Notes: a model not told the origin generated them from the sequence alone. Numbered from the stretch's first letter, positions 17,816 through 57,991 are shown. The stretch: 64,000 nt of DNA from a virus (IMGVR_UViG_3300035703_000034:1-64000), one strand, 5' to 3'. Numbers and translations: made by a program.

Positions 17816-17824
17816 CGCAGCGAT

Positions 17825-17832
17825 CGATAATC
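17825..17832 (+). promoter_or_regulatory. Putative phage promoter motif variant CGATAATC
   Basis: Intergenic, upstream of a GGAGG RBS and the 17850 start. Confidence 0.45.
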
Positions 17833-17849
17833 TACTTGGAGGCAGACGC

Positions 17850-18494
17850 ATGCAACCGCCCATCAGTCCGGACATGAGAGAGCGCGAGCTCGGCGATCGC
17901 ATCGGGTTCTGGGGCGCGACGGCCGGCACCGCCGCCGTCGCCGCCACCCAGCAGCCCAAGGTCCGACAGCTGCTCGGCCTGGCGGTGAAGGCCGCCGGGC
18001 TCGGCGAGGCCTTCGACCCGCTCGACGCGCAGCACCAGCAGTGGCTCGCGCAGCACGTCGCGCGGCAGAAGCAGGCCACCTTGCACGCCTGGCAGGGCCT
18101 GCCTGCCGATCGGCAAGCGCAGACGCGCGGGGCCGTCAAACAGGCGTTGAACGCGTTTGACGACGTGCTCGCCTACGGCCGCTACGCCGAGAAGGTCGCC
18201 CGGGTGGCGATGACGCCCCAGATGGTCGCCGACCTCGACCTCGAGGGCCACCTCGCGCTGGCCGACCTGCGCGACAAGACGACCTTCCGCGCCGCGCTGG
18301 GGCTCGGGGCCGGCAGCCTGGCTGGCGGCATGCTCGCGCGCAAGGGGCCGGTGCCGTCGTTCGCGATGCCGGCCGGCGCCCTGCTCGGCGGGCTCGCGGG
18401 CGGCATGTTGGGCGTCGCCTCCGTGCCGACGCACCGCGAGCTCTCGAACATCTACCTGCAGAGCATGGCGCGCCAGCGGCGCATGGCCCCATGA
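17850..18494 (+). CDS. Glycine-zipper membrane protein, KxA-motif family
   Basis: C-terminal GxxxG hairpin. Contains VKAA, QKQA and EKVA motifs. Confidence 0.6.
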   Translation: MQPPISPDMRERELGDRIGFWGATAGTAAVAATQQPKVRQLLGLAVKAAGLGEAFDPLDAQHQQWLAQHVARQKQATLHAWQGLPADRQAQTRGAVKQALNAFDDVLAYGRYAEKVARVAMTPQMVADLDLEGHLALADLRDKTTFRAALGLGAGSLAGGMLARKGPVPSFAMPAGALLGGLAGGMLGVASVPTHRELSNIYLQSMARQRRMAP

Positions 18495-19249
18495 CCCACC
18501 CCTGGCTCGCCCTGGTCCAGGAACGCCGTGCGGCCGCCAGCCTCAAGCAGGCCGCGGCGCAGCGGCCCGCGCCGCCTGCGGCGGCCACCCCGCTCGCGAG
18601 CACCTACGCCCAGTACCACCCGCTCATCCAGAAGACCGTGCACCAGTGGTCCGGCTCCGGCCTGCCCGCGATCGTGCTCGAGGCGGAGGCCAAGCGCCTG
18701 GTGGCGCAGGGCCTGAGCTCGTACGACCCGGCCAAGGGCACCCAGCTCTCGACCCACCTGATGAGCCACCTGCGGCAGATGGACGCCTTCGTGAACACCT
18801 ACGGCCCCGCCATCCGGGTGCCGCAGGACCGGGCGCTCGCGCAGCGGCGGGTCGGCACGATCACAGCCGAGTACGAGAACCGGTTCAACCGGGCGCCCAC
18901 GCCCCAGGAGCTCTCCGCGCAGCTGGGCGTGCCCGTCCACAACCTCGGCAGCCTGCACCGGCAGCAGGTCAACCTCTACTCGAAGGCGCAGGCCGGTGGC
19001 TTCGCGCAGCCCGTGCGCGAGGACCTGAGCGCGCATCAGATCGCGCTCGACTACGTGTACCACGACCTGCCCGCCACGCACCGGCAGGTGTTCGCGTACA
19101 GCCTCGGCTACAACGGCGCGCCGAAGCTGACGCCCGGCGCGATCGCCACCCAGCTCAACCTGTCGCCCGCGCGCGTGTCCCAGCTCAAGGCCGACATTGC
19201 GGAGCGCACGCGGCGCTACGGGCGCGCCGTCGAGAGTCTGATGGCCTGA
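18491..19249 (+). CDS. Sigma-70-family (FliA/WhiG-like) RNA polymerase sigma factor
   Basis: Region 2 'SYDPAKGTQLSTH', region 3 'RAPTPQELSAQLGV', region 4 HTH 'LTPGAIATQLNLSPARVSQL'. Confidence 0.8.
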   Translation: MTHPWLALVQERRAAASLKQAAAQRPAPPAAATPLASTYAQYHPLIQKTVHQWSGSGLPAIVLEAEAKRLVAQGLSSYDPAKGTQLSTHLMSHLRQMDAFVNTYGPAIRVPQDRALAQRRVGTITAEYENRFNRAPTPQELSAQLGVPVHNLGSLHRQQVNLYSKAQAGGFAQPVREDLSAHQIALDYVYHDLPATHRQVFAYSLGYNGAPKLTPGAIATQLNLSPARVSQLKADIAERTRRYGRAVESLMA

Positions 19250-19286
19250 TGCCCGATCGGCGTATCATTCAACAGGAAGTCTCGTC

Positions 19287-20192
19287 ATGCGTAAAACGGC
19301 CTACTTGACCCACCTCCCGTTCGATCCCATCACCGAAGGCGAGGAGGCACAGGCCACGTCGCCCTTCCCGGTCGATGCGCACGGGCGACCGATGACGATG
19401 CTCCAGGCGTACTACCAGGCCCGCCCGCTCAACCCGCTGCTGCCGATGCCCGCGTTCGAGCCGAGTGACGCCTACTGGCACACCATGCTCTTACGCGCAC
19501 AGCTGCGGCAGCAACACCAGGGACTGGGGGAACTGATGCGACCCATCGACTTGTACCGCGTCAAGCGCGCGACCGAAGAAGCCCACCGGTACGACGACCG
19601 GATCGACCCCATCTTGCTGCACCCGCTGCTCTCCGCGCGGCCCAAGACGCTCGACGAGCTGGGCGATCGGCGGCAGGAGTACAACATCGGCCTCGGTGCC
19701 GGCGGCACCATCGGCGCGTTGGGCGGGGCCGCGCTCGGCATGATGGCCCGGAAGTTCTACCCGAAAGGCCCGGCGCTCATCCCGGCCGCGGGGGCGCTGA
19801 CGGGCGCCGCGACGGGAGCCGGCCTGGCGCTCTGGCCGACGACCATCAAGCGCTTCATGTCGAACGTGGACCGCCACGATCGGGCCGTCAAGGACTTCGA
19901 AGACATGACGGGCAAGGAGCTTTCCTTCACGACCCGTCACCCGTACCTGACGGACGCGGGCGCTGCGATCGGGGGCGGACTCGCCGGCATGGCCATCGGC
20001 GCGGCGGTGGGCGGCATGACCGGACACGGCGCGGTGCGCGGGGCGTTCATGGGCAACATCGGCGGATCGATCATGGGCCCGTTGCTCAGCATGGGTGCAC
20101 AGGCGGGCCGCAAGGACGAGGTGGGGCCGTACATCGACCCGAAGCGCCTGCGCGGCTACGGCTACACGCTCTGGGATCACTACGAGGATTGA
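19287..20192 (+). CDS. Glycine-zipper membrane protein with HPYL module
   Basis: Two GxxxG hairpins separated by 'HDRAVKDFEDMTGKELSFTTRHPYL'. Contains KTA and KRA motifs. Confidence 0.7.
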   Translation: MRKTAYLTHLPFDPITEGEEAQATSPFPVDAHGRPMTMLQAYYQARPLNPLLPMPAFEPSDAYWHTMLLRAQLRQQHQGLGELMRPIDLYRVKRATEEAHRYDDRIDPILLHPLLSARPKTLDELGDRRQEYNIGLGAGGTIGALGGAALGMMARKFYPKGPALIPAAGALTGAATGAGLALWPTTIKRFMSNVDRHDRAVKDFEDMTGKELSFTTRHPYLTDAGAAIGGGLAGMAIGAAVGGMTGHGAVRGAFMGNIGGSIMGPLLSMGAQAGRKDEVGPYIDPKRLRGYGYTLWDHYED

Positions 20193-20201
20193 GGCTTGAC
20201 C

Positions 20202-21464
20202 ATGACCACCCCTGTTGTTGTTGATCCCATCCTCCGCCACCCCTGGGCCGCCATCAAGCCCAAAGACGAGCAAGATTTCAAGGGCAAGAGCGGTGAGCTG
20301 GTCCGGGCCGGCATCGTTGGCGGCGTGCTCGGCCTCGGCGCGGGCGTCGCGGCGGTGAAGCTGCTGCACCAGCGCGCGGTGGACAAGGTGCTGCGCCGCG
20401 ACATACACAGCCTCTTCGATCACACGGTCACGCTGCCGTTCGCCGCGGACCCATTGGGGTTCGTCAACAGCAGCGTCGGAGTTGGCGGTGGGTTGGGCAT
20501 AGGTGCGGTCGCGGCGCGCCAAGCGTATGATCACATCAGTCGGCACGCCGAGGCGGCACAGCAGTACGAGGCGCAAACGGGGCGAAAGATTCCCTTCATG
20601 GCGCGGCACCCCTACCTGCTGTCCGCAGCACCCGCCCTGGGTGGCGCGGCCCTGGGTGCCGCTGTCGCCGGCAAGGGTCTCGGCATGCGCACGTTGGGAG
20701 CAAGTGGCGGCCTCTTGGTGGGCGGCCTCGCGGGGTCCCCGTTGCTGGCCAACGCCGGCGCCGACGCCCGTGCGGCGTTCTTCGACGTCCACAAGCAGGC
20801 CAACACCATCAACCCGATCCTGCTCCACCCCACCCTCGTCAAGCGGCCTGCCACGCCGGAAGAGGCCGAGGCGCGCGGCAAGGACTACGCGGGCTTCATG
20901 GGGACCGGGGCGGCGCTCGGCACCCTGGCGGGCGCGGGCCTCGGGCTGTACCTGGCCAAGCGCTACGGCGACGGCGACATGCCCGCGCACATGGCCGGCT
21001 TCGGCGGCGCTGTCGGCGGTGCCCTGGCCGGCACGGTCGCCGGCGGTGCCGGCGCGTACTTCAAGCGCTACGCCCAGGCCATCCAGGAGCACGACGCTGC
21101 GGCGCGCCAGTACGAGGCCCAGTCCGGCACGAAGCTGCCGTTTTCGGTGCGGCACCCCCACGCGATGCTCTGGGGGCCGATGGCGCTCGGCACGGCCGCG
21201 GGTGCCGCGCTCGGGTCGCATGCCCGTCTGGGCCTCTCGCGGGCGTCGCGGCCCGTGGGTGCCGCGATGGGCCTGATGGGCGCGGCCATGACCGCCGCGC
21301 CGCTGTCGGCGGCCCATGCTTACGCGCAGCGGCGCGACATGTTCAAGGACAAGGTTGGTCCGCTGTCCACCGAGATGTACGGGGGCGACTTCGGCTCCGA
21401 CATCCAGACCCTCGAGGATCGCCAGAAACAGCGCGACGAGGTGGCCGAGCTCGGGATCTCCTGA
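20202..21464 (+). CDS. Glycine-zipper membrane protein with two tandem HPYL modules
   Basis: Internal duplication ('DPILRHP'/'NPILLHP'; 'KIPFMARHPYL'/'KLPFSVRHPHA') joined at 'VHKQA'. Confidence 0.7.
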   Translation: MTTPVVVDPILRHPWAAIKPKDEQDFKGKSGELVRAGIVGGVLGLGAGVAAVKLLHQRAVDKVLRRDIHSLFDHTVTLPFAADPLGFVNSSVGVGGGLGIGAVAARQAYDHISRHAEAAQQYEAQTGRKIPFMARHPYLLSAAPALGGAALGAAVAGKGLGMRTLGASGGLLVGGLAGSPLLANAGADARAAFFDVHKQANTINPILLHPTLVKRPATPEEAEARGKDYAGFMGTGAALGTLAGAGLGLYLAKRYGDGDMPAHMAGFGGAVGGALAGTVAGGAGAYFKRYAQAIQEHDAAARQYEAQSGTKLPFSVRHPHAMLWGPMALGTAAGAALGSHARLGLSRASRPVGAAMGLMGAAMTAAPLSAAHAYAQRRDMFKDKVGPLSTEMYGGDFGSDIQTLEDRQKQRDEVAELGIS

Positions 21465-21474
21465 CGCCCGTCCC

Positions 21475-24400
21475 ATGCGCACCCCCGAAGAAACCTTCCA
21501 GGCAATGAGCGCCGAGCTCGGCGAGGGCCTCAAGCAGGCTTTTCCCGTCGTGACGAAGGACGGCAAGGCGCTGCAGCTGCTCAAGCTGCACCCGCCCGAG
21601 CTGCCCGACCCCCACGATTACAACGCGCAGAAGGCCGCCATCATGGCGGGCGAGACCTGGGGCACGCCGCTCAAGGCGACGGTCGCGCTGCTCGGCCCCG
21701 ACGGCAAGCAGTTCGACAAGCGCGACATGCGCCTCGGCACGCTCCCGACGCCGACCAACCGGCACACCTTCATCCTCAACGGCAAGGAGTACCAGGTCAA
21801 CCACCAGCGTCGGCTGCGGCCCGGCATCTACACCAAGTTCAGCCGGCTCGGCGAGGCGCTGGCCGACTTCAACCTCGCCCAGGGCCGCAACTTCTCCGTG
21901 GGGCTAGACCCCGACGAGAACCGCTTCTTCATGCGCTACGGCAACACCCACGTGCCGCTGCTGCCCGTGCTCCAGCACCTCTACGAGCAGAAGTCCGTCG
22001 GACTCGGCAAGGCCTTCGACCACCCGGTGACGCCCGACGAGGCCACGAGCGCCCTCAAAACCCTCCACACCATGGTGCTGCCCAACGCGCCCGTGCCAGA
22101 TAACATGGGCGCCCTGAAAACGGCCCTAAAAGAAAAGCTGGGGCTGGCGAGCCTCGACCCCGACGTCACGGGCATCACCGTGGGCAACCGCCACGAAACC
22201 GTGTCAGGGCGCGCGTTGCAGGACGCGGCGAGGCAGGTGCTCGCCGTCCACAAGCGCGACGCGCTGCCGAGCACCAAGGAGCAGCTCGCCTTCACCGAGG
22301 TCCACGGCGTCGAGGACTTCCTGAAAGAGAAGTTCGTGAAGGGCCGCACCCAGCTGAAGTACCGGCTGACGCCCGCGCTCGCCACCAAGACCGAGCTTGC
22401 GAAAATCAACGTCAAGGGCGCGGTCGATGGCCTCATCAAGGAGTTCTTCATCGGCTCCGCCCAGTCCAACGTCGTGCAGCAGATCAACCCGCTCGAGATG
22501 AAGGAGAACGCCTTCAAGCTCACCAGCCTCGGCGAGGGCGCCATCGGAGACACCCACGCCATCAGCCCCGAGGTGCGCGTCATCCACCCGAGCAGCATGG
22601 GCTTCATCGACCCCGTCCGCACCCCCGACAACGCCAAGGCCGGGGTCGACGTGCGCTTCGCCGTGAACACCAAGAAGGTCGGCAAGCAGATTTTCACCAA
22701 GGTGAAGGACCTCCAGACCGGCCAGTACGTCATGAAGTCGCCCGTCGAGCTCTACGACGCCGTGGCCGCTCCCGACCTCGAGCCCGCCGCCAACGGCCTC
22801 GTGCGCGCCGTGCACCGCGGCGCCCTGGTCGACGTGCCGCTGCAGCAGGTGCGCTACCAGCTGCCCGCCAACGACAGCTTCACCGTCAGCACCACGCTCG
22901 TGCCGTTCCTCCAGAACACCCACGCCCACCGCGCCGCCATGGGCGCGAAGATGCTGGGCCAGGCCGTCAGCCTGCTCGACCGGGAGGCCCCGCTCGTCAC
23001 GACGCCGCACGCCGAGACCGGCATCGGCGACTTCCTCATCAAGGCCCCCGTGGCCGGCACCATCACGAAGATCGAGAACGGCGTCCTCACGCTGACAGAT
23101 GCAAAAAACCATATCCATCGCATCAGCTACCCCCACGAGTTCCCCCTCAACGGCCACAGCTTCTTGCACGCCGAGCTCAAGGTGAAGGTCGGCGATCGCG
23201 TGGCGGCGGGCCAGCTGCTGGCCGACAACAACTTCAGCCGCAACGGCCAGGTCGCCCTCGGCAAGAACCTGACGGTCGCCTACATGCCCTACAAGGGCCT
23301 CAACCACGAGGACGCTGTGGTCATGACCCGCCAGGGCGCGGACAAGCTCATATCCCAACATCTGCATACGTTCGAGGCCCTCAAGGACGATCGCGCGGTG
23401 CACAGCAAGAAGGCTTACCAAGCGCACTACCCCGGCGAGTACGAGCTCAAGCACTTCGACAAGCTCGACGACGACGGCGTCGTGAAGGTCGGGCAGGTGC
23501 TCGAGCACGGCGACCCCATCATGCTCGGGTTGCGCAAGCGGCTCATGTCCCCCGAGCAGCTGCTGCTCGGCAAGGCCAACAAGGGCGTGCTCAACCCCAT
23601 GATCGACACGACCCAGGCCTGGGATCGCCCGTACCCGGGCAAGGTCTCGGCCGTGCAGAAGACGAGCCAGGGCATCAAGGTCACGATCACGGCCAACGCG
23701 CCCATGCAGGTGGGCGACAAGGTCTGCGGCCGGCACGGGAACAAGGGCGTCGTCTCCGTCATCATCCCGAACGAGGAGGCCCCCCGCACCGCCGACGGCA
23801 AGGTGCCCGACCTCATCCTCAACTCGGCCGGGTTGACCTCCCGCATGAACAACGGCCAGCTCTACGAGGTGATCGCCGCCAAGGCCATCCAGAAGCTGGG
23901 GCTGCCCCAGCAGACCTTCCCGCACTTCGCGGGCGTCAACACCTACAACCTGGTCAAGACCCTGCGCGACAAGGCCAAGATCTCCGAGACCGACGAGCTG
24001 TTTGACCCCAAGACCGGGCGCAGCCTGGGGCCCACGTTGATGGGTCCGATGTACGTGCTCAAGCTCTTCAAGCAGGCCGAGACCGGCTTCTCCGCCCGGG
24101 CGGGCGGCGAGTACGACATCGACCTGCGCCCCGCGAAGGGCGGCGAGGAGGGCGCGAAGTCCGTCGGCACGCTCGACTTCTTCAGCCTGCTCTCGCACGG
24201 CAGCCGCAAGCTGCTCGCCGACGCGCACCTGAAGAGCGAGTTCAACCCCGAGGTCATGGAGGCCATGTGGAAGGGGCAGCCGCTGCCCCCGCCCAAGCCG
24301 ACCTTCGCCTGGAACAAGTTCCAGGGCATGCTGACGGGCATGGGGCTCAACGTGAAGAAGACCGGCAACCAGCTCGCCTTGCTGCCGCTGCACGACCACG

Positions 24401-25767
24401 AGGTGCTCGCCATGTCGAACGGCCGGGTCACCGAGCCGTTGACGGTCTTCGACAAGCCCGACCCCGTGACGAACCTGCCCTTCCGCCCGGAGCCGGGCGG
24501 GCTCTTCGACCCCACGGTGACGGGCGGGCTCGTCGGCAACCGCTGGAGCCACATCAGCCTGCACGAGCCCGTGCTCAACCCCATCTTCAAGAACGCCGCC
24601 CGCACGATCCTCGGGCTGCCCAAGGCCCAGTTCGAGCAGACCCTTTACGAGAAGGGCGCCGGGCACGTCCAGCAGCAGCTGAGCCTGATCGACCCCGCCA
24701 AGCGCCTCGCCGAGCTGCAATCCGAGCTCGCCAAGACCAACTCGACCTCGAAGCGCGACGCCATCTACAAGCAGATCAAGTACCTGCGCCCGCTGGCCGA
24801 CAACAAGCTGAAGCCCGACACGGCCTACGTGCTCAACCACATCCCCGTGCTGCCGCCCGCCATGCGCCCCATCTACCCGGACCCCCAGACGGGCCGGATG
24901 GTCGTGTCGGACGCCAACCAGCTCTACAAGAACCTGCTGCTGGTCAACCAGCAGCTGCGCACGCACAGCACGCTGGGCGACGCCGCCACGACGACGGCGC
25001 TGCGCCAGGGGCTCCACGAGGCCGTCGCGGCCGTGCAGGGCTTCGACGGCACGCCCGAGAAGCTCGGCTTCAACCAGGAGCCGCCGCCCTCGGGCTTCCT
25101 CAAGGTCATCACCGGCACGGCCCAGGCCAAGGACGGCTTCTTCCAGTCCAAGCTGCTCTCCCGCCGTCAGGACGTCGCGGCCCGCGGCGTGGTGGTGCCC
25201 GACACGAGCCTGGAGATCGACGAGGTGGGGCTGCCCAAGCCGATGGCGATGAAGCTCTACCGCCACCACGGCGTCGGCGAGCTGGTGCAGTCGGGCATGC
25301 CGCTGCTCAAGGCCGCCGAGGAGTTCGAGAACGAAACCCCCACTGCCGTGAAGGCCGTCCAGGCTGCTATGATGAAGTTCCCCGCGATTGTCACGCGCGC
25401 ACCCTCGCTGCACAAGTTCAACTTGATGGGCTTCAAGCCCAAGATCGTCGACGGCAAATCGGTGCGCGTGAACACCCTCGTGCTCAAGGGCTTCAACATG
25501 GACTTCGACGGGGACCAGAGCACCATCCATGTGCCCATCAGCCCGGAAGGGGCCGCCGACGCGCGCCGCATGATGCCCTCGAACAACCTGTTCAGCCCGC
25601 TCAACAACGGCCCCGTGCACGTGCCCTCGCAAGAGACGGTCTACGGGCTGTGGAAGGCGACGGTCGCCAAGGGCGCCCCCGTCCAACGTTTCCCGAACAA
25701 GGCCGCCGCCCTCGCGGCGTTCCAAGCAGGTCGGATCCGCATCACGGACCCCATCGAAATCGGTTAA
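21475..25767 (+). CDS. DNA-directed RNA polymerase, beta subunit fused to N-terminal half of beta'
   Basis: Beta motifs 'FILNGKEY', 'VRVIHPS...DPVRTPD', 'RAAMGAKM..QA', 'GDKVCGRHGNKGVV', 'SRMN.GQ'. Beta' motifs 'GLFD', 'IPVLPPAMRP', 'KLLSRRQD..ARGVV', 'RAPSLH', catalytic 'FNMDFDGDQ'. Confidence 0.93.
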   Translation: MRTPEETFQAMSAELGEGLKQAFPVVTKDGKALQLLKLHPPELPDPHDYNAQKAAIMAGETWGTPLKATVALLGPDGKQFDKRDMRLGTLPTPTNRHTFILNGKEYQVNHQRRLRPGIYTKFSRLGEALADFNLAQGRNFSVGLDPDENRFFMRYGNTHVPLLPVLQHLYEQKSVGLGKAFDHPVTPDEATSALKTLHTMVLPNAPVPDNMGALKTALKEKLGLASLDPDVTGITVGNRHETVSGRALQDAARQVLAVHKRDALPSTKEQLAFTEVHGVEDFLKEKFVKGRTQLKYRLTPALATKTELAKINVKGAVDGLIKEFFIGSAQSNVVQQINPLEMKENAFKLTSLGEGAIGDTHAISPEVRVIHPSSMGFIDPVRTPDNAKAGVDVRFAVNTKKVGKQIFTKVKDLQTGQYVMKSPVELYDAVAAPDLEPAANGLVRAVHRGALVDVPLQQVRYQLPANDSFTVSTTLVPFLQNTHAHRAAMGAKMLGQAVSLLDREAPLVTTPHAETGIGDFLIKAPVAGTITKIENGVLTLTDAKNHIHRISYPHEFPLNGHSFLHAELKVKVGDRVAAGQLLADNNFSRNGQVALGKNLTVAYMPYKGLNHEDAVVMTRQGADKLISQHLHTFEALKDDRAVHSKKAYQAHYPGEYELKHFDKLDDDGVVKVGQVLEHGDPIMLGLRKRLMSPEQLLLGKANKGVLNPMIDTTQAWDRPYPGKVSAVQKTSQGIKVTITANAPMQVGDKVCGRHGNKGVVSVIIPNEEAPRTADGKVPDLILNSAGLTSRMNNGQLYEVIAAKAIQKLGLPQQTFPHFAGVNTYNLVKTLRDKAKISETDELFDPKTGRSLGPTLMGPMYVLKLFKQAETGFSARAGGEYDIDLRPAKGGEEGAKSVGTLDFFSLLSHGSRKLLADAHLKSEFNPEVMEAMWKGQPLPPPKPTFAWNKFQGMLTGMGLNVKKTGNQLALLPLHDHEVLAMSNGRVTEPLTVFDKPDPVTNLPFRPEPGGLFDPTVTGGLVGNRWSHISLHEPVLNPIFKNAARTILGLPKAQFEQTLYEKGAGHVQQQLSLIDPAKRLAELQSELAKTNSTSKRDAIYKQIKYLRPLADNKLKPDTAYVLNHIPVLPPAMRPIYPDPQTGRMVVSDANQLYKNLLLVNQQLRTHSTLGDAATTTALRQGLHEAVAAVQGFDGTPEKLGFNQEPPPSGFLKVITGTAQAKDGFFQSKLLSRRQDVAARGVVVPDTSLEIDEVGLPKPMAMKLYRHHGVGELVQSGMPLLKAAEEFENETPTAVKAVQAAMMKFPAIVTRAPSLHKFNLMGFKPKIVDGKSVRVNTLVLKGFNMDFDGDQSTIHVPISPEGAADARRMMPSNNLFSPLNNGPVHVPSQETVYGLWKATVAKGAPVQRFPNKAAALAAFQAGRIRITDPIEIG

Positions 25768-25849
25768 TGCTCTCTCCGAGGTCGCCCCCGCTGCCACGCA
25801 GCGCGGGGTGCGCTCGGCATCGCTCAGTCATCGCTATGTGGAGGTTATT

Positions 25850-28362
<2,513 letters not shown>

Positions 28363-28366
<4 letters not shown>

Positions 28367-28371
28367 TAATT
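28363..28371 (+). promoter_or_regulatory. Putative phage promoter motif CTGATAATT (overlaps nrdJ stop)
   Basis: Exact motif copy 5 nt upstream of the ATG at 28377. Confidence 0.55.
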
Positions 28372-28376
28372 GGGGT

Positions 28377-30056
28377 ATGACCCTGCCCCATAAGTTCGCC
28401 AACCTGGGGGAGGAGCTGCTGCACGCGGCCGGTCACGCGGCCCACGTGCAGCACCTCGCCCCCCACGACGCGCCCGCGCCGCGCAAGCCTGCCAAGCCGT
28501 CGAGCCTGGGCCGGGCCGCCGTGGCGCGGGTCAAGCAGGCCGCCATGACGGCGGACTTCCAGGCCAAGGCCCACCAGCAAGAGGCCATCGACCGGCTGCA
28601 TGCGAACAACGGCGCGCTGCTGTTGATGCACGGCACCGGCACGGGCAAGACGCCAACCAGCCTCTACGGCGTTGAGACCCTGCGCGACAAGGGCCGGGCC
28701 ACCCGCACGCTCGCGGTGGTCCCGGCGCCGTTGCGCGAGAACTTCCTCAACGAGGGCGTGCACAAGTTCACGGACCGCAAGGGCGTGAAGTTCGGGCCCA
28801 AGGGCGAGGCCGGCAGCATCCACATCAGCGGCCGCATCCCGAAGGCCGACTACTACGTCGTCTCCAACGAGATGTTCCGCAAGGACCCCGCCGCCTACCT
28901 CAAGGCCACCGGCGCCGACACGATCGTCTGGGACGAGGCCCACAAGGGCCGCTCCGACCAGTCGCTCAACTACCAGGCCATGCGCCAGGCCCGCGGCCAG
29001 GTGAAGAACTTCCTCGCGCTCTCGGCCACGCCCGTGGTCAACCACCCGCGCGACCTCGTGCCGCTCATCGACATCGTCACCAACGGCAACCACCGCCTCG
29101 GCACGCCCCAGCAGTTCGACCGCCTCTACACCGGCACCGTCACGCAGTTGCACGGCCCGTGGGCCAGCTTCGGCATCGGCCACCAGACGCGCGAGACGGT
29201 GCTCAAAAACACCCACCACCTCGCCGCCGAGCTCAACCGTCACATCCACTACGTGCCCGTCGAGGACGTCGCCAAGGACATGCCCAAGAAGGTCGTCCAC
29301 GACGTGCCCGTCGAGATGTCTGCCCACCAGAAGGCGCTCTACGACTTCCAGATGGCGAAAATCGACCCGCTGATGGCCGAAAAAATCCGCAACAACGTGC
29401 CCGTCGGCCAGTCCGAGGCCCGCTCGATCCTCACCAAGATCATCCGGGCGCGCGCCATCTCCAACTCCGTCCACGCGGGCGATCGCCGCTTCACCCCCGC
29501 GTCCGCGGCCGTCGCCACGCCCAAGATGAAGCGCATGCTCGACGACGTGACGGCCCACCTGGCAGCCGACCCCAAGCACAAGGCCATCGTCTACACCAAC
29601 CTGGTGAACGGCGGCGTCGACTCCGCCGTGGCAGGGCTGCGCGCCCGCGGGGTGGAGCCTGGCATGTTCATCGGCAGCACCCACCAGAAGAAGTCCGAGC
29701 GCCAGCAGCACATCCAGGACTACCTGGCCGGCAACAAGCGCGTGATGGTCATCAACTCGGCCGGCACGGAGGGCCTGAACCTGCCCGGCACCACCGCCCA
29801 CTTCACCCTGGACCCCCACTGGAACCTCAGCCTCATGGAACAGGCGGAAGCCAGGGGCATCCGGGCGGGCTCGCCCGTCAAGCAGGTGGATGTCTACCGC
29901 TACACCAGCGCCCCGCCCAAGATGCTCGGCATGTTCCGCTCCAACGAGGCCACCGTCGACCAGTGGGTCTACAACGTCGCCAACCGCAAGGAGCGGCTCA
30001 ACCGCCAGCTGCTGGGCCTGCTGCAGCGCCCCCGGAGGTCCGATGGCACGCCTTAG
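28377..30056 (+). CDS. SNF2-family (SF2) helicase/ATPase
   Basis: 'HGTGTGKT' (motif I), 'VWDEAH' (II), 'LSATP' (III), 'GTEGLNL' (V), 'QAEARGIR' (VI). Confidence 0.88.
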   Translation: MTLPHKFANLGEELLHAAGHAAHVQHLAPHDAPAPRKPAKPSSLGRAAVARVKQAAMTADFQAKAHQQEAIDRLHANNGALLLMHGTGTGKTPTSLYGVETLRDKGRATRTLAVVPAPLRENFLNEGVHKFTDRKGVKFGPKGEAGSIHISGRIPKADYYVVSNEMFRKDPAAYLKATGADTIVWDEAHKGRSDQSLNYQAMRQARGQVKNFLALSATPVVNHPRDLVPLIDIVTNGNHRLGTPQQFDRLYTGTVTQLHGPWASFGIGHQTRETVLKNTHHLAAELNRHIHYVPVEDVAKDMPKKVVHDVPVEMSAHQKALYDFQMAKIDPLMAEKIRNNVPVGQSEARSILTKIIRARAISNSVHAGDRRFTPASAAVATPKMKRMLDDVTAHLAADPKHKAIVYTNLVNGGVDSAVAGLRARGVEPGMFIGSTHQKKSERQQHIQDYLAGNKRVMVINSAGTEGLNLPGTTAHFTLDPHWNLSLMEQAEARGIRAGSPVKQVDVYRYTSAPPKMLGMFRSNEATVDQWVYNVANRKERLNRQLLGLLQRPRRSDGTP

Positions 30057-30300
30057 CCAGCTGCGCGAACCCGACGATGCCTGCACCGTGCGCGTCACCA
30101 AGCTCTCGCCGATCGCCCTCGCCGACCTGCGGGACCTGTGCGATCGCGAGCGCTTGCCGATCGACATGCGGGTCAAGGGGGAGTACCTCGGCGAGACCGT
30201 CGTCGAGCTGATGGCCCCCTACAAGGAGCTGCTCCAGTACCTCGTGTGGCTCTTCAGCCGCGAGTACGCGCACCCGTTCGAGCTCGAGGCCAGCGCATGA
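30043..30300 (+). CDS. Small hypothetical protein
   Basis: GGAGG RBS before ATG 30043. Its stop overlaps the next start (ATGA). Confidence 0.6.
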   Translation: MARLSQLREPDDACTVRVTKLSPIALADLRDLCDRERLPIDMRVKGEYLGETVVELMAPYKELLQYLVWLFSREYAHPFELEASA

Positions 30301-32144
30301 GCGTCACGACGATCGGGCAGCTGCTCATCGAGCAGACCCTGCCGGACGACATGAAAACGACCGGCACCCTCAACAAGAAGGGCGTGAGCACCCTGCTCGG
30401 CAAGCTCGCCCAGCAGCACGCGCCCCGCTACGGCAGCGTGGTCAAGAACCTGCGCGACGTCGGCAACCAGATCGCCTACGAGTCGGGCACCAGCTTCAAG
30501 CTCGAGGACCTCCGCCCGATGACCGAGCTGCGCGACGCCGCCGTCGAGGCCCACGGCAAGGAGCTCGCCGCCCTGCACGCCCAGCTGGCGAAGAACCCGG
30601 CGCTGTCCTTCGACCCCCACTTCCAGCAGAAGCAGGTTGCCCTGCACGCCAGGATCGAGGAGAAGGTCAACCAGGCCGTTGCCCAGCGCATCGAGAAGGC
30701 CCCCAACAACCTGACGGGCTGGGTCGCCTCCGGCGCCCGCGGCGACACCGCGATGGCGCGCCAGATGGTCGGCATGGCCGGCATGAACCTCGATGCGACC
30801 AACCGCCTGCTGCCGCACGTCGCCTGGCGAAGCTTCTCCGAGGGCCTCAGCCCCGTCGACTTCCACGTGCACGCCCAGGGCGCGCGCCGGGGCCTCGTCA
30901 ACACCTACAACTCCGTGCGCGACCCCGGCGCCTTCGCCAAGGAGCTCAACACCATCCAGGTCGACATGACCATCACGGGCACGGACTGCCACACGACCCG
31001 CGGCCGCAGCCTGCCGGCCGACAGCCCCGACCTGATGGGCCGCTACCTGGCCCAGGACGTGCCGGGCGTCGCCGGGCGCAACGAGCTCGTCACGCCGCGC
31101 GTCGCCCAGGCCCTCAAGGCCAAGGGCGGCACGGTGGTCGTGCGCTCGCCGCTCTACTGCCAGGAGACCTCGGGCGTGTGCGCCCACTGCCACGGCCCCA
31201 ACGAGGAGGGCAAGCTCCCGCAGCTCGGCGACGCCGTGGGCCTCAAGTCCTCGCAGGCGCTGACCGAGCCGCTCACCCAGCTGGCTCTCAACCAGAAGCA
31301 CACGGGCGGCGTCGTGGGCGCAGGCAAGTCCCCGCTCCACGCGATCCTCCAGCTGATGCACGCCCCCAAGATCTTCGTGGGCGCGGCCACCGTGGCGAAG
31401 CGCTCCGGCACCATCGACGCCGTCGCCGAGGCGCCCGCGGGCGGCTTCCACGTCACGGTCAGCGGCACCAAGCACTACGTCCCGCCCGATTTGACCGTGA
31501 AGGTCAAGGTCGGTCAGACCATCGCCCGGGGCGACGCGCTCTCGACCGGCCCGCTCAACCCCGTCGACGTCGTGCAGCACAAGGGCATGGAGCAGGGCCG
31601 CATGTACTTCGCCGACGCCCTGCGCGGCCTGTACGCGGACTCCGGCATCACGGGCCACCCGCGCGTCTTCGAGACCGTCACGCGCGGCATCCTCAACCTC
31701 GGCCAGGTCGTGCACCCGGGTCGCTCGACCTACAGCCCCGGCGAGGTCGTCCACTGGAACAAGGTCCAGAACGACCTCTCCGCCGAGCCGGAGCGCGTCG
31801 GGCTCGCGCAGGCCACGGGCCGCATCCTCATGCACGAGGCGGGGCCGCTCGCACCGTACACCACCCTGACGCCCGCCCACGTGGCGCAGCTGAAGGGCCA
31901 CGGCCTCACGACGGTGCCGGTCTTCAAGCGCGACGCGCTGGTGGTGCAGCCCCTCATGCTCGGCACCGAGCGCGCGGCCCTGCACAAGGGCGACTGGCTC
32001 TCCAACCTGGCCTTCCGCTTCGTCACCTCGACCTTCAAGGAGAACGCGGCGACGGGCGCCACCGCCACCATCGCCAACTCGTTCAACCCGCTCGGCCCCT
32101 ACGTGACCGGCAGCATCGGGCGCGGCACGGGCGGCCGGTACTAG
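30297..32144 (+). CDS. RNA polymerase beta' subunit, C-terminal half
   Basis: 'TTIGQLL', 'SGARG...QMVGMAG', 'SFSEGLSPVDF', bridge helix 'GARRGL', Zn site 'DC...RSPLYC...VCAHCHG', trigger loop 'EPLTQLALNQKHTGG'. Confidence 0.9.
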   Translation: MSVTTIGQLLIEQTLPDDMKTTGTLNKKGVSTLLGKLAQQHAPRYGSVVKNLRDVGNQIAYESGTSFKLEDLRPMTELRDAAVEAHGKELAALHAQLAKNPALSFDPHFQQKQVALHARIEEKVNQAVAQRIEKAPNNLTGWVASGARGDTAMARQMVGMAGMNLDATNRLLPHVAWRSFSEGLSPVDFHVHAQGARRGLVNTYNSVRDPGAFAKELNTIQVDMTITGTDCHTTRGRSLPADSPDLMGRYLAQDVPGVAGRNELVTPRVAQALKAKGGTVVVRSPLYCQETSGVCAHCHGPNEEGKLPQLGDAVGLKSSQALTEPLTQLALNQKHTGGVVGAGKSPLHAILQLMHAPKIFVGAATVAKRSGTIDAVAEAPAGGFHVTVSGTKHYVPPDLTVKVKVGQTIARGDALSTGPLNPVDVVQHKGMEQGRMYFADALRGLYADSGITGHPRVFETVTRGILNLGQVVHPGRSTYSPGEVVHWNKVQNDLSAEPERVGLAQATGRILMHEAGPLAPYTTLTPAHVAQLKGHGLTTVPVFKRDALVVQPLMLGTERAALHKGDWLSNLAFRFVTSTFKENAATGATATIANSFNPLGPYVTGSIGRGTGGRY

Positions 32145-32154
32145 AGGTTCGCCC

Positions 32155-32886
32155 GTGTCCGAGTTCATGCCCCCCGAAGACGATCTCGCCGTCGGCGGCC
32201 TGCCGAACGAGGCGCAGCAGGGCAGCCTCGCCCGCACCGTCGAGCGCCTGCAGGCGCTCATCAGCCTACACTACGAGTACCTGCCGGTGTTCTTCCAGAG
32301 CACGCTGCTCAGCCTCGTGCAGGACCACTTCGCCCACGACCCCGACTACCGCTACGATCGCCACCAGCCGCTCAACAACACCGTCCTCATCACCCGCGAG
32401 TGGAGCCGTTCAACGCTCGGTCAACGCGACAACCGACCGATTGTCTCCGTCGGCTTCCTCGGCTCGCAGGCCAGCCACATGGCGCTGCGCGACACCATGA
32501 GCGAGACCGTGCCGAACGCCTTCAAGCCGACCCGCACAGCCAGCATCGAGGAGGTCAGCACCTTCCAGATCGCCGTCATCGACCACAACGCCGTGCGCGC
32601 GACGGTGCTCGCGCAGCGGCTGCGGGCGCGCCTGGTGGCGACCCGCCTGCAGCTGCAGCGGCTCTACAAGCTGCAGGACTTGGGGATGCCCACGCTGAAC
32701 GGCCCACAGAACGTCGAGGAGTTCGACGACCTGTTCCAGGTCACGATGGCGCTGCAGATCATGAGCCTGCCGCGCTGGACCGAGACGCAGGACCACGACT
32801 ACCTGCGCCGCATCGCCGTGCTGACGCACCTGAACGCGACGGACCTGTTCTCGGAGATGCTGCTGCCGGATGCCCCGAAGCCGTAA
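32155..32886 (+). CDS. Putative tail-completion/neck-type structural protein
   Basis: Typical codon usage, GAGG RBS, alpha/beta pattern resembling tail terminators. Function is inferred. Confidence 0.4.
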   Translation: MSEFMPPEDDLAVGGLPNEAQQGSLARTVERLQALISLHYEYLPVFFQSTLLSLVQDHFAHDPDYRYDRHQPLNNTVLITREWSRSTLGQRDNRPIVSVGFLGSQASHMALRDTMSETVPNAFKPTRTASIEEVSTFQIAVIDHNAVRATVLAQRLRARLVATRLQLQRLYKLQDLGMPTLNGPQNVEEFDDLFQVTMALQIMSLPRWTETQDHDYLRRIAVLTHLNATDLFSEMLLPDAPKP

Positions 32887-33127
32887 GCCGCGCGCCGTCA
32901 GCCGCTCCTACGCCCGCAAGGACGGCCTCTGCCGCCTGTGCGAGCAGCCGTTCTCCACCGTGCGCGCCGGCGGCCGGACATGCGGGGCCTGCCAGCGCCG
33001 CGCCGAGGCCGACGCCCGCCTGCCGTGGCTGCTGACGCACACGCCCCCTTTGCCCGCGGGACCCCTCACGCTGCCGGACCGCTGGCTGCGGCGGCTCACA
33101 GACCCGACGGACGATAGAAGATCGTGA
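32870..33127 (+). CDS. Small Zn-finger-like protein
   Basis: 'CRLC...TCGAC' CxxC pairs. Confidence 0.4.
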   Translation: MPRSRKPRAVSRSYARKDGLCRLCEQPFSTVRAGGRTCGACQRRAEADARLPWLLTHTPPLPAGPLTLPDRWLRRLTDPTDDRRS

Positions 33128-33884
33128 CCTGCTCGCCGACGATCGGCTTGTAAGGCGCGAAGATCTCGAAGGTGCGGTTGCCGAGGTAGTCCCACGCGCC
33201 GTCCGGCAGCTCGAACGAGCCGCTGATGAACAGCCGCGGGGCCGTCGACGTGTCGACGTCCTGGCTCACGGTGAAGGTGCCGTTGCCGTCCGTGCCGTCC
33301 GAGCCGTCCACCACGCCCGTCGCCACCTCGGCCTGCATCAGCTGCAGCCCGGGGTTGATCTCCGTGATGGTCGAGCCGTCGTCCGACCCGAGCTGGAACT
33401 CGATCACCTTGATGCGCTCGCCGCCCTCGCGCGGCACCGCGAACTCGATCTCCGTGTCGGAGAGCTCCGTGAAGTTGTCGATCAGCACCCCGCCCGACCA
33501 CACCATCAAGGTGCTGCGGCCCATCACGTAGGGCTCCGGCAGCTCGAAGATGGTCTGGCCCGCCTCCGCGATCAGCACGGGGTGGTTCTTGATGCGCGGC
33601 GTCAACCGGTCGAGCGCCGCGAGGTCGGCCTTGAGCTGCAGGTACCCTTCCTGCCCGGTGTTGCCGCCGCCCGTGACGTTCAGGTCGCCGATCACCGTCA
33701 GGCCGCCGACGATCTGGAAGTTCTCGCCGACCTCGAGCACGCCCTGGTCGTTCAGGCGCACCAGCTTGCCGGCGGCACCCGACTGACCGGCCTCGCCGGG
33801 GTCGGCGACCTTCACGCCGTGGACCTCGGTCGTCGAGCCCATCCGGCGCTGGATGTGGTTGAGCAGGCGCGTCAGCAGCGACAT
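33096..33884 (-). CDS. Virion structural protein (fibre/baseplate-type beta repeats)
   Basis: 'AEAGQTIFELP...LMVWSGGVLI.NFTE' repeat type, also seen in 61796-63319. Confidence 0.55.
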   Translation of the reverse strand: MSLLTRLLNHIQRRMGSTTEVHGVKVADPGEAGQSGAAGKLVRLNDQGVLEVGENFQIVGGLTVIGDLNVTGGGNTGQEGYLQLKADLAALDRLTPRIKNHPVLIAEAGQTIFELPEPYVMGRSTLMVWSGGVLIDNFTELSDTEIEFAVPREGGERIKVIEFQLGSDDGSTITEINPGLQLMQAEVATGVVDGSDGTDGNGTFTVSQDVDTSTAPRLFISGSFELPDGAWDYLGNRTFEIFAPYKPIVGEQVTIFYRPSGL

Positions 33885-37701: not shown

Positions 37702-37830
37702 ATGCAGAAAACCGGTGTGCTCCAGTGCCCCCAGTGCCACAGCCGGGAGGTCATCCTCACGGAAGAGGAACGTGGCGAACAGGTCGTGGTCTGCGCCGAC
37801 TGCGACCACGAGTGGGTGCTGCCCGTCTAG
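37702..37830 (+). CDS. Small Zn-ribbon protein
   Basis: 'CPQCHS...CADCDHEW', with an AAGGA RBS. Confidence 0.6.
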   Translation: MQKTGVLQCPQCHSREVILTEEERGEQVVVCADCDHEWVLPV

Positions 37831-50297: not shown

Positions 50298-51242
50298 ATG
50301 GATCAGGATATGCACACTCTGCAAGAAGTTCGGATGAGGAACCAGGGGCTGGTTCAGATGCTCCGCTCCGGACCCGAGGGTCACGAGAAGGTGGCCTCGG
50401 CCATCAAGGAGGAGCTGATCCTCAACTACGCACGCGAGGACGGCCTGTCGCGCCGCGCGATGCCGATGCGCCCCGTGTCGAACGCCGAGCTCACGCCCGA
50501 CGCCAACAACCCCGACGTGCCCGCCATGCTGGTCCCGGTGGAGCCGGTGCTCAACGAGTACCTCGCCACCTCCGTCGACTTCATGCAGCCGTCCAAGGAG
50601 CTCTGGTTCCGCTCCAAGGTGGCCTTCGTCTACTTCAAGCCGATCAAGACGAAGACCATCACGTTGACGGAAATGCAACTTCTTGCAAATAACTTTCCCA
50701 TCAGATCTTACATCGAGTCTGTCGCGCGCAACGACATTCTCGCGGTTGAAGACATCGCCCTGATCGAAGCCATCGAGCGCTGCGTGGCGAAGTTTTCTGC
50801 GACCAACGCCTTGACTTCGACCGCACCTTTGGTGAAAGATGTCATCGCGGACGGCGCGAAGGCGATGACCCGCAACCGACTCAATGTCGAACTCATTCTT
50901 CTGAATGAAATTACATATTACGACATCTTGAAGTGGAACTCTTCGGAAGTCGGCTCTCTTGTGCTGGACGACATCGTCGAGCACGGGCCGAAGGGCGAGG
51001 AGTTCAAGTACAAGAGCTGGCTGGGCTTCAAGTGGGTGTTGACAAACAACACCGACGTGATCCCCGAGAACATCCTGTACTACCTGCCCCCGCAGCGCTT
51101 CCTGGGCGTGTCGTACATGCTGGCCGAGGCCGAGCAGTTCCTCGAGTTCCGGGACGGCATCCTGCGCACGAACACCCGCGAGATCATCGGCCGCAACCTG
51201 ATGAACCCCCGCGGTCCCATCAAGCACACGCTGTCGGCCTAG
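50298..51242 (+). CDS. Major capsid protein (HK97-like fold, inferred)
   Basis: 314 aa, between protease/scaffold/decoration and neck genes. 'YAREDGLSRRAMP', 'DILAVED', C-terminal 'NPRG'. Confidence 0.7.
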   Translation: MDQDMHTLQEVRMRNQGLVQMLRSGPEGHEKVASAIKEELILNYAREDGLSRRAMPMRPVSNAELTPDANNPDVPAMLVPVEPVLNEYLATSVDFMQPSKELWFRSKVAFVYFKPIKTKTITLTEMQLLANNFPIRSYIESVARNDILAVEDIALIEAIERCVAKFSATNALTSTAPLVKDVIADGAKAMTRNRLNVELILLNEITYYDILKWNSSEVGSLVLDDIVEHGPKGEEFKYKSWLGFKWVLTNNTDVIPENILYYLPPQRFLGVSYMLAEAEQFLEFRDGILRTNTREIIGRNLMNPRGPIKHTLSA

Positions 51243-56727: not shown

Positions 56728-57117
56728 ATGGAAAAACCGCCCAAACCGGAACCGGCCTGCGCGCGGATCGACGCGGTGGTGCACCAGACCCTCAAGGACT
56801 GCCTCGCCCAGCACGGCGGCGCGCCGGCCGAGCTGTGCATGGCGATCGACGTATCATTGAAGTGGTTGTCCGAGCAGGGCGCGCCGTGCCGCGCGTTCGA
56901 GGTGCGGCTGGCGCAGGGCGGCGTCGGCTTCCGGTGCCTGGAGGCGGGCGAGGCCGCCCACCCCGAGGGGCTCTGGAAGCTGCTGCTGCTCGCCAGCGCG
57001 CCGCGCACGGGCCCGGACGGCGCCCCGCTGCTGGTGCCGACCACGTTGAACTGGTCCTCGGACACGCAGCGCTTGACGGTGGAGTACGCCCGCGCCGATG
57101 AAACACCTGACGCGTAA
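56728..57117 (+). CDS. Hypothetical protein
   Basis: AGAGG RBS, divergent from the sheath, overlaps the sigma start. Confidence 0.5.
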   Translation: MEKPPKPEPACARIDAVVHQTLKDCLAQHGGAPAELCMAIDVSLKWLSEQGAPCRAFEVRLAQGGVGFRCLEAGEAAHPEGLWKLLLLASAPRTGPDGAPLLVPTTLNWSSDTQRLTVEYARADETPDA

Positions 57118-57991
57118 AGAAGAGCTCGAGCTGATCATCGCGGCGCAGGCCGGCGACCGCCAGGCCCTGGCGACGCTCGTGCTCGCCCACCGCCCCTTCG
57201 TGCAGTACCTCATGCGCCAGATCACCTTCCCGGAGTGGATGGACCCCGAGGACATCCTGCAAGAAGGCTGCATCGGGCTGATGGACGCCGTCCGGACCTT
57301 CAACACGCAGTCCGGCAACCGCCTGCTCACCCACGCCTACTGGAAGATCAAGAAGGCGCTCACCAACCACATGAACAAGATGGGCTACATGGTGACGATC
57401 CCGTTCCTCAAGCTGCTAGACCTGAAGAAGTACATGAACAAGCTCGAGCAGACGCCGCAGCTGGTGACGGACGAGGAAAAGAAGAAGTACAGCACCTTCA
57501 AGAACGTCCAGCTGCTGTCCTTGTCGATCGGCATGTGCTCCTTCGAGGAGCCGAGCTTCCGGCAGTTCAACAACCACCGCGCCGCCGAGGAGTCCGACGA
57601 CGGCACCGGCGCGTACGTCGCCAACGACGTCAGCCTCGTCAGCCGCTCGACCGAGGAGGTCGTCCTCGGCGAGGCCGTCTACGCCGACCTGCTGCAGGTC
57701 ATCTCCAGCCTCAACGCGCTGGAGGGCGTGCTGCTGTCACAGTACTTGGGGGTGTACGGCGACGACCGGAAGCACTCGTTGAAGGCACTGGTCGGACAGA
57801 AAGCAGACTTCGACCCGTCGGGGAACCTGGTGACCGGCAGCAACGGGTACGGCATCCAGGTGGGCAAGTCATATAATACCATTAGCAAGCTGGTTCACGG
57901 CGCCCTGCATCTTGTGCGGCATCAGGTTGCACAGCATCTGGACGACGTGTTGCCCGAGATGGGAATTAGGCACCATGACCACACCGCCTGA
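57098..57991 (+). CDS. Sigma-70-family RNA polymerase sigma factor
   Basis: 'LTRKEELELI..AQAGD..A...LV.AH..FV', 'EDILQEGCIGLMDAVRTFN...GNRLLTHAYWKIK' (regions 1.2 and 2), with a divergent region 4. Confidence 0.85.
   Translation: MKHLTRKEELELIIAAQAGDRQALATLVLAHRPFVQYLMRQITFPEWMDPEDILQEGCIGLMDAVRTFNTQSGNRLLTHAYWKIKKALTNHMNKMGYMVTIPFLKLLDLKKYMNKLEQTPQLVTDEEKKKYSTFKNVQLLSLSIGMCSFEEPSFRQFNNHRAAEESDDGTGAYVANDVSLVSRSTEEVVLGEAVYADLLQVISSLNALEGVLLSQYLGVYGDDRKHSLKALVGQKADFDPSGNLVTGSNGYGIQVGKSYNTISKLVHGALHLVRHQVAQHLDDVLPEMGIRHHDHTA

Follow-up and report, generated by a model that had tools for sequence, protein, structure and literature searches.

Natural fusions between beta and beta', two subunits of RNA polymerase, are found in Helicobacter and Wolbachia, where the C-terminus of beta is joined to the N-terminus of beta' in one chain. 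In these cellular fusions both subunits are of full size; to our knowledge the fused chains function together with alpha and omega and have not been split again. In cyanobacteria beta' is divided into RpoC1 (gamma) and RpoC2, and RpoC1 is not fused to beta. In large phages, according to two reviews, highly divergent multisubunit polymerases occur without sigma factors, and sigma factors occur in phages that have no polymerase and rely on that of the host (PMC7824862, PMC13282480). Here we characterize a phage locus (positions 21,475 to 32,144 of IMGVR_UViG_3300035703_000034:1-64000, a 64,000-nucleotide stretch of DNA that we refer to as the window) in which beta is fused to the N-terminal part of beta' and the remainder of beta' is encoded by a separate gene downstream. 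Between them these two genes probably encode the whole catalytic core of a bacterial-type RNA polymerase that belongs to the phage and is made of two polypeptides, for which we propose an origin and a route of initiation and assembly.

Two described groups of phage enzymes serve here as the main comparisons. Salmonella phage Arash encodes polymerase proteins gp206 (1525 aa) and gp216 (606 aa), sigma factors gp10 and gp196, and the helicase gp217 (OQ632216, PMC10585845). The Arash polymerase genes are annotated simply as beta and beta', and the passages of the paper examined make no mention of a fusion (PMC10585845). The enzymes of the multisubunit-RNAP-encoding Caudovirales (mReC; Weinheimer and Aylward 2020) resemble the polymerase of the window in belonging to tailed phages of ~100-300 kb and in having compact, bacterial-like beta and beta' proteins that cluster apart from the cellular enzymes (PMC7481178).

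Domain organization of the two polymerase chains

The window makes up the initial 64 kb of a linear IMG/VR virus contig of 106,380 bp; its G+C content is ~69%, and CheckV puts the completeness of the contig at 51%. The fused gene (21475..25767, plus strand) begins with the ATG at 21475 and encodes a 1430-aa product, chain 1, which is identical to a database representative (P0005). Pfam matches along chain 1 comprise the beta domains Rpb2_3 and Rpb2_6 (E 2e-51) followed by the beta' domains Rpb1_1 and Rpb1_2 (E 4e-26). In phmmer searches of the PDB, residues ~300-975 match bacterial beta (E 1e-63), reaching position 1161 of the 1193 residues of the B. subtilis subunit, and residues 1060-1396 match positions 180-514 of E. 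coli beta' (E 4e-50).

The beta module occupies approximately residues 1-961 (21475..24357, plus strand), as defined by alignment to bacterial rpoB open reading frames (ORFs), by Rpb2_6 and by the GRHGNKG lysine motif, whose K749 and K757 show no variation within the family. The beta' N-terminal module follows at approximately residues 962-1430 (24358..25764, plus strand) and contains the clamp helices and the catalytic DFDGD loop. Since bacterial rpoB ORFs align only as far as residue ~961-962 and the N-terminal motifs of beta' come straight after, the two subunits are joined almost without a linker, at about nucleotides 24355-24400. The DFDGD residues are 1343-1347 (nucleotides 25501-25515) within the sequence NMDFDGD; across 25 family members D1343, D1345 and D1347 do not vary, and the chain runs 83 residues beyond the loop. 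The clamp-helix coiled coil lies at residues 1142-1183 (24898..25023, plus strand), equivalent to approximately residues 262-303 of E. coli beta', and was delimited from the interface of the complex model described below. The G+C content at third codon positions (GC3) is 0.91-0.94 throughout both polymerase genes.

The second gene (30297..32144, plus strand) encodes the C-terminal part of beta', a 615-aa chain 2 with the bridge helix, the trigger loop and the second zinc site of that subunit. It opens with MSVTTIGQLL at the ATG at 30297, 4.53 kb downstream of the fused gene, and the sequence upstream of this ATG has an in-frame GC3 of 0.34, indicating that it is noncoding in that frame. Chain 2 matches the Pfam domains Rpb1_5 (E 2e-14) and Rpb1_4 (E 1e-4; at 22.6 bits, under the Pfam cut-off of 24.8 bits), aligns with residues 653-1173 of Streptomyces beta' and has a PDB match to beta' with an E-value of 7e-42. 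A histidine in the trigger-loop region is invariant across the family.

The first zinc ribbon of beta' has been deleted. At the deletion site, identified by alignment to E. coli beta' (24496..24561, plus strand), the Cys-free sequence GGLFDPTVTGGLVGNRWSHISL is present; the region around it has 43 residues as against 116 in E. coli beta', and a short Gly-rich turn replaces the four-Cys ribbon. Between the GLF and HI.L motifs there are ~14 Cys-free residues where bacteria hold that ribbon, and the family consensus is likewise Cys-free at this site. The entire core has 5 cysteines in 2045 residues, 4 of them in the second zinc site. These four (C231, C288, C295 and C298 of chain 2; nucleotides 30987-31190) have the C-x6-C-x2-C spacing of that site, and 32-33 of 34 stand-alone homologues share them. 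The Cys-free deletion and the four conserved cysteines of chain 2 together imply that the first zinc site was lost and the second retained.

These observations bear out an earlier note made from the sequence alone, which had described a single 1430-aa ORF running from beta into beta' beyond DFDGD, both double-psi barrels on one polypeptide (here Rpb2_6 and Rpb1_2 of chain 1), a missing N-terminal zinc-binding Cys cluster in beta', and a continuation of beta' starting at 'TTIGQLL' 4.5 kb downstream. The beta/beta' junction that the note placed at about 24370-24420 overlaps with the interval obtained by alignment.

Occurrence of the layout in phages and databases

Layouts were counted among the 120 best database matches of the junction region. 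All 120 have both beta and beta' domains; 74 lack the C-terminal half and so have the split layout, and 46 are full-length fusions of ~2000 aa. The fusion junction and the deletion of the zinc ribbon are common to the split and full-length forms. A tblastn search of phage records recovered the entire fused chain, uninterrupted, in Salmonella phage Arash (32% identity at 97% coverage) and Vibrio phage D69; in Vibrio phages D181 and D148 chain 1 is in two pieces cut at residue 482/483, with a homing endonuclease gene between them. The fused chain is present in Arash, in D69 and in nine IMG/VR loci (contigs of up to 214 kb), at 29-64% identity. In eleven relatives the start of the C-terminal beta' chain is fixed (residue 1-4), and its distance from chain 1 varies from 0.65 to 4.8 kb. 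At two loci (L012 and L013) there is no stop at the split point, and a continuous frame encodes a single chain of ~2000-2100 aa.

A search with chain 2 against 1.84 billion representatives gave 1137 matches at E <=1e-30, cellular beta' included. Among the best 150 of these are stand-alone chains of ~600 aa, full fusions, C-terminally extended chains and chains cut at other positions. In some proteins (P0140, P0141, P0146, P0166, P0190 and P0215) the C-terminal beta' chain is prolonged at its C-terminus by 400-800 aa of unexplained sequence, and one such extension contains a GNAT acetyltransferase domain; we considered and ruled out that the long extensions are helicase fusions. One 1087-aa protein (P0152) is cut ~40 residues before the beta/beta' boundary and has the C-terminal tail of beta on a complete beta'. 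This protein must descend from a fusion, because the beta tail sits on its beta' chain.

Inteins are frequent in the family (P0015, P0022-P0035 and others; L008:16494-19454; L016). They are most often inserted immediately behind DFDGD; further recurrent positions are close to residues 394, 590 and 752 in chain 1 and to residues 201 and 340 in chain 2. Some database proteins start within an intein, which suggests split inteins.

Phylogenetic position and origin of the split

Trees were built from concatenated beta and beta' sequences of 32 bacteria (from 19 named phyla), 25 split forms and 23 full-length forms, together with the beta' of Rhizobium phage Y65. FastTree was run on 81 rows and 1983 columns, and a short IQ-TREE search under LG+G4 on 63 rows and 1340 columns, from which 17 bacteria and the Rhizobium row had been removed. 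All rows being bacterial or phage, the trees carry no root against archaea and eukaryotes.

A single branch separates the bacteria from the split forms (FastTree support 100; Shimodaira-Hasegawa-like approximate likelihood ratio test (SH-aLRT) support in IQ-TREE 100). The window enzyme falls outside every sampled bacterial phylum; nesting inside a bacterial RpoB/RpoC clade was what the earlier note had named as counting against its view of the enzyme. The split forms make up one clade (FastTree support 99; SH-aLRT 97), and this monophyly supports a single origin of the split. In the FastTree topology the full-length forms are paraphyletic around the split clade; in the IQ-TREE topology they need two changes, and no strongly supported branch forces this. 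An approximately unbiased (AU) test did not reject the full-length forms as one clade (p 0.644), the constrained tree being better by 13.75 log-likelihood units. The view that the split form derives from a full-length fusion rests instead on event parsimony, with one fusion and one fission as against three events for the alternative, and on re-split forms such as P0152.

A scan of 185,579 species genomes found no prophage copy; it returned cellular rpoB-rpoC loci only. Best-segment identity to the cellular loci is 25-30% in 79 of the 80 loci kept and 35% in the remaining one, which is an ordinary pair of separate rpoB and rpoC genes. A locus from a Candidatus Paceibacterota metagenome-assembled genome (L049:163-7014; DATJQA010000074.1) appears to encode rpoB and rpoC as one 2284-aa ORF, with the C-terminus of beta joined to the N-terminus of beta' as in Helicobacter and Wolbachia. 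In this bacterium of the candidate phyla radiation it would be a cellular beta-beta' fusion outside those two genera.

The phage split is close to the cyanobacterial RpoC1/RpoC2 break, as the earlier note had recognized: the two lie within ~16-25 residues of each other, between the same domains. The rpoC1 ORFs of cyanobacteria and melainabacteria can be aligned as far as the last residues of chain 1, whereas their rpoC2 begins at residue 24-25 of chain 2; in the PDB alignment residue 1 of RpoC2 corresponds approximately to residue 17 of chain 2. Because the cyanobacteria sit on the bacterial side of the tree, the phage and cyanobacterial splits are independent.

Alpha, omega and sigma

Potential partners of the polymerase were sought in five complete relatives. 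These are Arash, D69 and three genomes from IMG/VR with a completeness rating of 100%, of which two have terminal repeats. None of the five gave a match to the alpha (PF01000, PF01193) or omega (PF01192) families, and the same searches gave matches in 14 of 14 cellular control genomes. The earlier note had suggested a search for alpha-like genes beyond the window; the alpha domains PF01000 and PF01193 are without a match in the whole 106-kb contig, which represents ~51% of the genome. A conserved 243-aa gene that follows the second polymerase gene (32155-32886) was considered as a candidate alpha-like gene and ruled out, its product looking like a neck or tail-terminator protein. Each of the five complete relatives has one polymerase copy per genome.

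Two sigma factor genes are present in the window. The first, sig1 (18491..19249, plus strand), encodes a 252-aa protein with a variable N-terminal leader and weak matches to Sigma70 regions r2, r3 and r4. It lies 2.2 kb upstream of the fused polymerase gene (1-4 kb upstream in L006, L007 and L009), and its product is homologous to Arash Gp10 (E 2e-14). The second, sig2 (57098..57991, plus strand), encodes a 297-aa protein with a Sigma70_r2 match (E 5e-11) and is related to Arash gp196 (E 9e-8). A sig1 profile built from eight database homologues and two locus copies finds exactly one copy in each of the five complete relatives (E 1e-21 to 1e-27), two of which have no sigma factor detectable by Pfam.

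The earlier note had also proposed structure prediction of the chains with sigma, and this was run for sig1 with the beta' N-terminal module (chain 1 residues 962-1430). The complex model has an ipSAE of 0.76 as against 0.23 for the best of 3 controls; 58 of 80 solved complexes attain the mark used, as do 2 of 110 mismatched pairs, a calibration that applies only roughly because the alignments were our own. Separate runs share at least 42% of contacts, and the pLDDT of the partner is at least 68. The modelled interface brings together the clamp-helix coiled coil at residues 1142-1183, whose retention is also indicated by the PDB alignment, and an invariant segment of the sigma at residues 58-72. 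Because sigma-core complexes have already been solved, the result is to be read as likeness to those complexes and not as binding.

Genes between the two polymerase genes

The stretch between the polymerase genes holds the ribonucleotide reductase (RNR) and helicase genes that the earlier note had reported, and in addition a small ORF that it had not listed. The RNR large subunit, with a C-terminal TSCPD domain (25850..28366, plus strand), matches Ribonuc_red_lgC (E 6e-111), lgN and TSCPD in Pfam. An RNR gene is found at this position in L006 and L009, there too together with SNF2, but not in L007, Arash or others; Arash has small unrelated genes here. The RNR gene is a passenger between the two polymerase genes. 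In L009 (L009:14381-17764) it is broken by ~0.85 kb, probably an intein or a homing endonuclease.

The SNF2-family helicase (559 aa; 28377..30056, plus strand) matches SNF2-rel_dom, ResIII and Helicase_C in Pfam and is homologous to Arash Gp217, whose gene neighbours the gene for the C-terminal beta' chain of that phage. SNF2 homologues are confined to the sub-clade of the window enzyme and to Arash; we ruled out a role as universal polymerase partner, the gene being absent from 3 of the 5 complete relatives and nonadjacent in most loci. In L007 (L007:14682-17219) the SNF2 helicase, whose gene lies between those of the polymerase, has a NUDIX hydrolase domain fused to its N-terminus. The 56-aa N-terminal leader of the window helicase (28377-28544) is translated, with a GC3 of 0.95, and is missing from the L006 and L009 homologues. 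The sequence K-Q-A-A occurs both in this leader and in the likewise translated leader of the sigma (18491-18610), with GC3 values of 0.93-0.95. A comparable N-terminal K-x-A leader on the polymerase was rejected: the segment is the conserved N-terminus of beta, and K-x-A occurs 11 times in the chain.

The small ORF (85 aa; 30043..30300, plus strand) overlaps the end of the SNF2 gene with its start and the start of the second polymerase gene with its stop (ATGA). It has a GC3 of 0.94 and gave no match in a Pfam search; conservation is confined to L006, the closest relative (E 4e-15, with 35% identity across 74 aa). Its product could be a small polymerase-associated protein. The spacer before the second polymerase gene was considered as an RNA element and rejected, since it folds no better than shuffled sequences (z -0.8) and holds this coding ORF; Rfam gave no match in 17000-33500.

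Genome setting and a promoter-like motif

PHROG and Pfam matches identify the virus as a tailed phage with a contractile tail. They include a tail-fibre-like protein (1-1248), the large terminase (37827-39395, minus strand; PF05876), the head protease (45752-47137) and the sheath (54750-56690, minus strand); the candidate head protein (50298-51242) has no Pfam match. The polymerase genes lie inside the block of virion genes and are co-oriented with the genes from 1588 to 32886.

A promoter-like motif, GATAATCT (17826..17833, plus strand), is located 16 nt before the first gene of a near-gapless block that contains sig1 and the fused gene and leads to the polymerase genes. A variant, TGATAATTGG (28364..28373, plus strand), is directly upstream of SNF2, and the motif also precedes SNF2 in L006 and L009. 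GATAAT[CT][CT] has 12 copies in the 106-kb contig as against ~0.9 expected. Of these, 9 are intergenic, in the sense orientation and 15-30 nt before gene starts, mostly those of head, tail and other structural genes. Sites of the form (T/C)GATAAT(T/C)(C/T) are at window positions 1550, 7594, 17826, 28364, 39870, 47464, 49711 and 56712 (minus strand) and at contig positions 67208 (minus strand) and 92662. The GATAAT-type motif is a candidate late promoter of the phage, for which no obvious -35 partner was seen; a second motif, TCAGTCA.GCA, was rejected as a promoter, being not enriched. With this motif in common, the polymerase genes seem to be expressed alongside the structural genes, like those for the virion polymerases of N4, phiKZ and crAss-like phages.

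In a HMMER alignment to residues 502-572 of E. coli beta, chain 1 has the differences Q513N, D516Q, H526N, R529K and S531T (E. coli numbering). These five rifampicin-contact residues are classical resistance positions, and such an enzyme would be expected to be insensitive to rifampicin.

A proposed origin and mode of action, and its alternatives

We propose that chain 1 supplies both double-psi barrels, the magnesium site at DFDGD and the clamp helices, and that chain 2 would complete the core with the bridge helix, the trigger loop and the second zinc site. The layout is probably inherited. One ancestor of a large phage lineage would have fused beta to beta' and lost the first zinc ribbon; in one sub-lineage, to which this phage belongs, the gene would then have been cut at a fixed point near the position of the cyanobacterial RpoC1/RpoC2 break, and later insertions at the cut would account for the RNR gene, the SNF2 helicase gene and the small ORF found here. 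Initiation would involve docking of the phage sigma encoded at 18491-19249 on the clamp helices. Assembly may require neither an alpha dimer nor omega, as the covalent link between beta and beta' could take over the assembly role of alpha. Finally, the enzyme, the sigma and the helicase may be made late, together with the structural proteins, and enter the host from the virion at injection to set off transcription of the phage.

The chances of virion delivery seem to us evenly balanced. In Arash particle preparations Gp206 is the most detected protein, with 100% peptide coverage and 3516 spectra as against 1333 for the capsid protein, and Gp216, the sigma Gp10 and the helicase Gp217 are also abundant (PMC10585845). 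This proteome, and the motif held in common with structural genes, make delivery plausible. The combined picture, in which a single sigma-70-dependent, bacterial-type RNA polymerase of one or two chains, free of alpha and omega, is packaged with its sigma and injected, would amount to a third way in which phages supply a transcription machinery of their own; we offer it tentatively, and on balance doubt that every part of it will hold. Were it true, the phage would be independent of the host polymerase, and insensitive to inhibitors of that enzyme, from the first minute, and the beta-beta' fusion would be an adaptation enabling alpha-free assembly after ejection.

It is hardly conceivable that the fusion or the split is an artefact of assembly or gene calling, or that the genes are decaying remnants. 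The window does come from one metagenomic contig. However, the same layout is found in cultured phages and many independent homologues and so is not an assembly error: the junction and the split point recur unchanged, at 29-87% identity, in the cultured phages and in scores of assemblies made independently, Arash Gp206 has complete peptide coverage (PMC10585845), and the invariant catalytic residues and the even GC3 across both genes speak against decay. It is also unlikely, if to a much lesser degree, that the phage sigmas serve the host core polymerase, as in T4 and SPO1, with the phage enzyme initiating without a sigma or with some other factor. Phages lacking a polymerase of their own commonly encode a sigma for the host enzyme (PMC7824862, PMC13282480), and the complex model would pass equally for a close cousin of the true partner. 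Set against this are the one-to-one occurrence of the sig1 family with the polymerase in all five complete genomes, across hosts as unlike as Salmonella, Vibrio and one of high GC, the short distance between the sig1 and polymerase genes at four loci, the retained clamp helices on which a sigma would dock, and the detection of the Gp10 sigma alongside the polymerase in Arash particle preparations (PMC10585845).

A stronger competitor, whose chances we put not far short of even, is that the polymerase is not packaged and that transcription proceeds much as in T7: the host RNA polymerase would transcribe early genes, including those for the phage polymerase and sigma, and the phage enzyme would carry out middle and late transcription. 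The Arash particle proteome looks contaminated, with 116 of 252 phage proteins listed as particle-associated, among them RNR, RNA ligases and other metabolic enzymes; the authors themselves allow for carry-over of proteins abundant during infection, and the paper makes no mention of a CsCl step (PMC10585845). Each genome moreover has a single polymerase set, unlike the phiKZ type with separate virion and non-virion enzymes. Against a T7-like course, the spectra for Gp206 exceed those for the major capsid protein (PMC10585845), the polymerase genes are in the virion block behind the same promoter-like motif as the head and tail genes, and in Arash and D69 a gene of portal size, which carries that annotation only in Arash, precedes the polymerase gene by two genes. 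The composition of the Arash proteome is one of several points that weigh against our proposal of a self-sufficient, packaged enzyme derived by fusion and then fission. The direction from fusion to split is not settled by the tree; host alpha or a divergent analogue could be used in assembly; this phage, with ~51% of its genome in the contig, could have a second polymerase; and its sigmas could redirect the host core enzyme.

Comparison with known systems

The phiKZ and AR9 polymerases and the single-chain virion RNA polymerase of crAss-like phages are, like the enzyme described here, phage-owned two-barrel polymerases without alpha or omega, and virion-delivered versions of them exist. They differ in being made of 4-5 pieces or in being extremely divergent, whereas the window enzyme aligns plainly with bacterial beta and beta'. 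They also lack sigma-70 family factors (PMC13282480).

The earlier note had assigned the enzyme to the minimal, bacterial-like, deep-branching type reported from metagenomic phages. The compact, bacterial-type character of the enzyme stands; a deep-branching position and membership of mReC are conjectural, and the layout and virion markers of mReC do not match. In the two parts of the mReC table examined, every polymerase pair consists of two proteins of ~900-1560 aa, some genomes having two sets, and neither a 1430 + 615 aa layout nor a ~2000-aa chain is listed (PMC7481178). The mReC paper treats phage beta and beta' as products of separate genes, speaks of fusion for crAss-like phages alone and makes no reference to sigma (PMC7481178). 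The mReC markers for the major capsid protein (PF07068) and the large terminase (PF03237) are unmatched here, the terminase of the window matching PF05876 only. The IMG sample numbers of our related loci do not appear in the supplements of that paper (PMC7481178), and a search of viral contigs with the beta' of Rhizobium phage Y65 found nothing. A gut 'Bacteriophage sp.' record (MT836236) was considered as a link to mReC and rejected, as it carries ordinary bacterial-looking rpoB and rpoC genes.

Arash and the Vibrio phages D69, D148 and D181 are closer. Their fusion and split point are those of the window enzyme, with which they share 31-32% identity along 96-97% of the chain, and they form one clade with the window enzyme in the trees; Arash in addition has the orthologous sigma Gp10 and an SNF2 helicase gene beside the gene for the C-terminal beta' chain. 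The genes inserted between the polymerase genes are different, as are host and GC content (53% in Arash as against 69% here), and D181 and D148 differ in the extra break by a homing endonuclease gene. Full-text literature searches for fused or split phage polymerases with a sigma returned nothing beyond the mReC and Arash papers, and the fused-then-split layout, which characterizes a large phage lineage, is apparently an unpublished variant.

The value of the window itself is confirmatory, as one more, high-GC member of this lineage. The lineage as a whole comprises hundreds of natural variants, full-length, split, intein-bearing and re-split, and its cultured members, Arash on Salmonella and the Vibrio phages, make it experimentally accessible. 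Lacking genes for alpha and omega, and with one or two chains that amount to a core of ~2045 residues, it provides a natural minimal bacterial-type polymerase for studies of structure and assembly, and a test of whether a beta-beta' link can replace the alpha platform. In combining a bacterial-like core with sigma-70 family factors of its own, it stands outside the two-way division drawn in the reviews (PMC7824862, PMC13282480).

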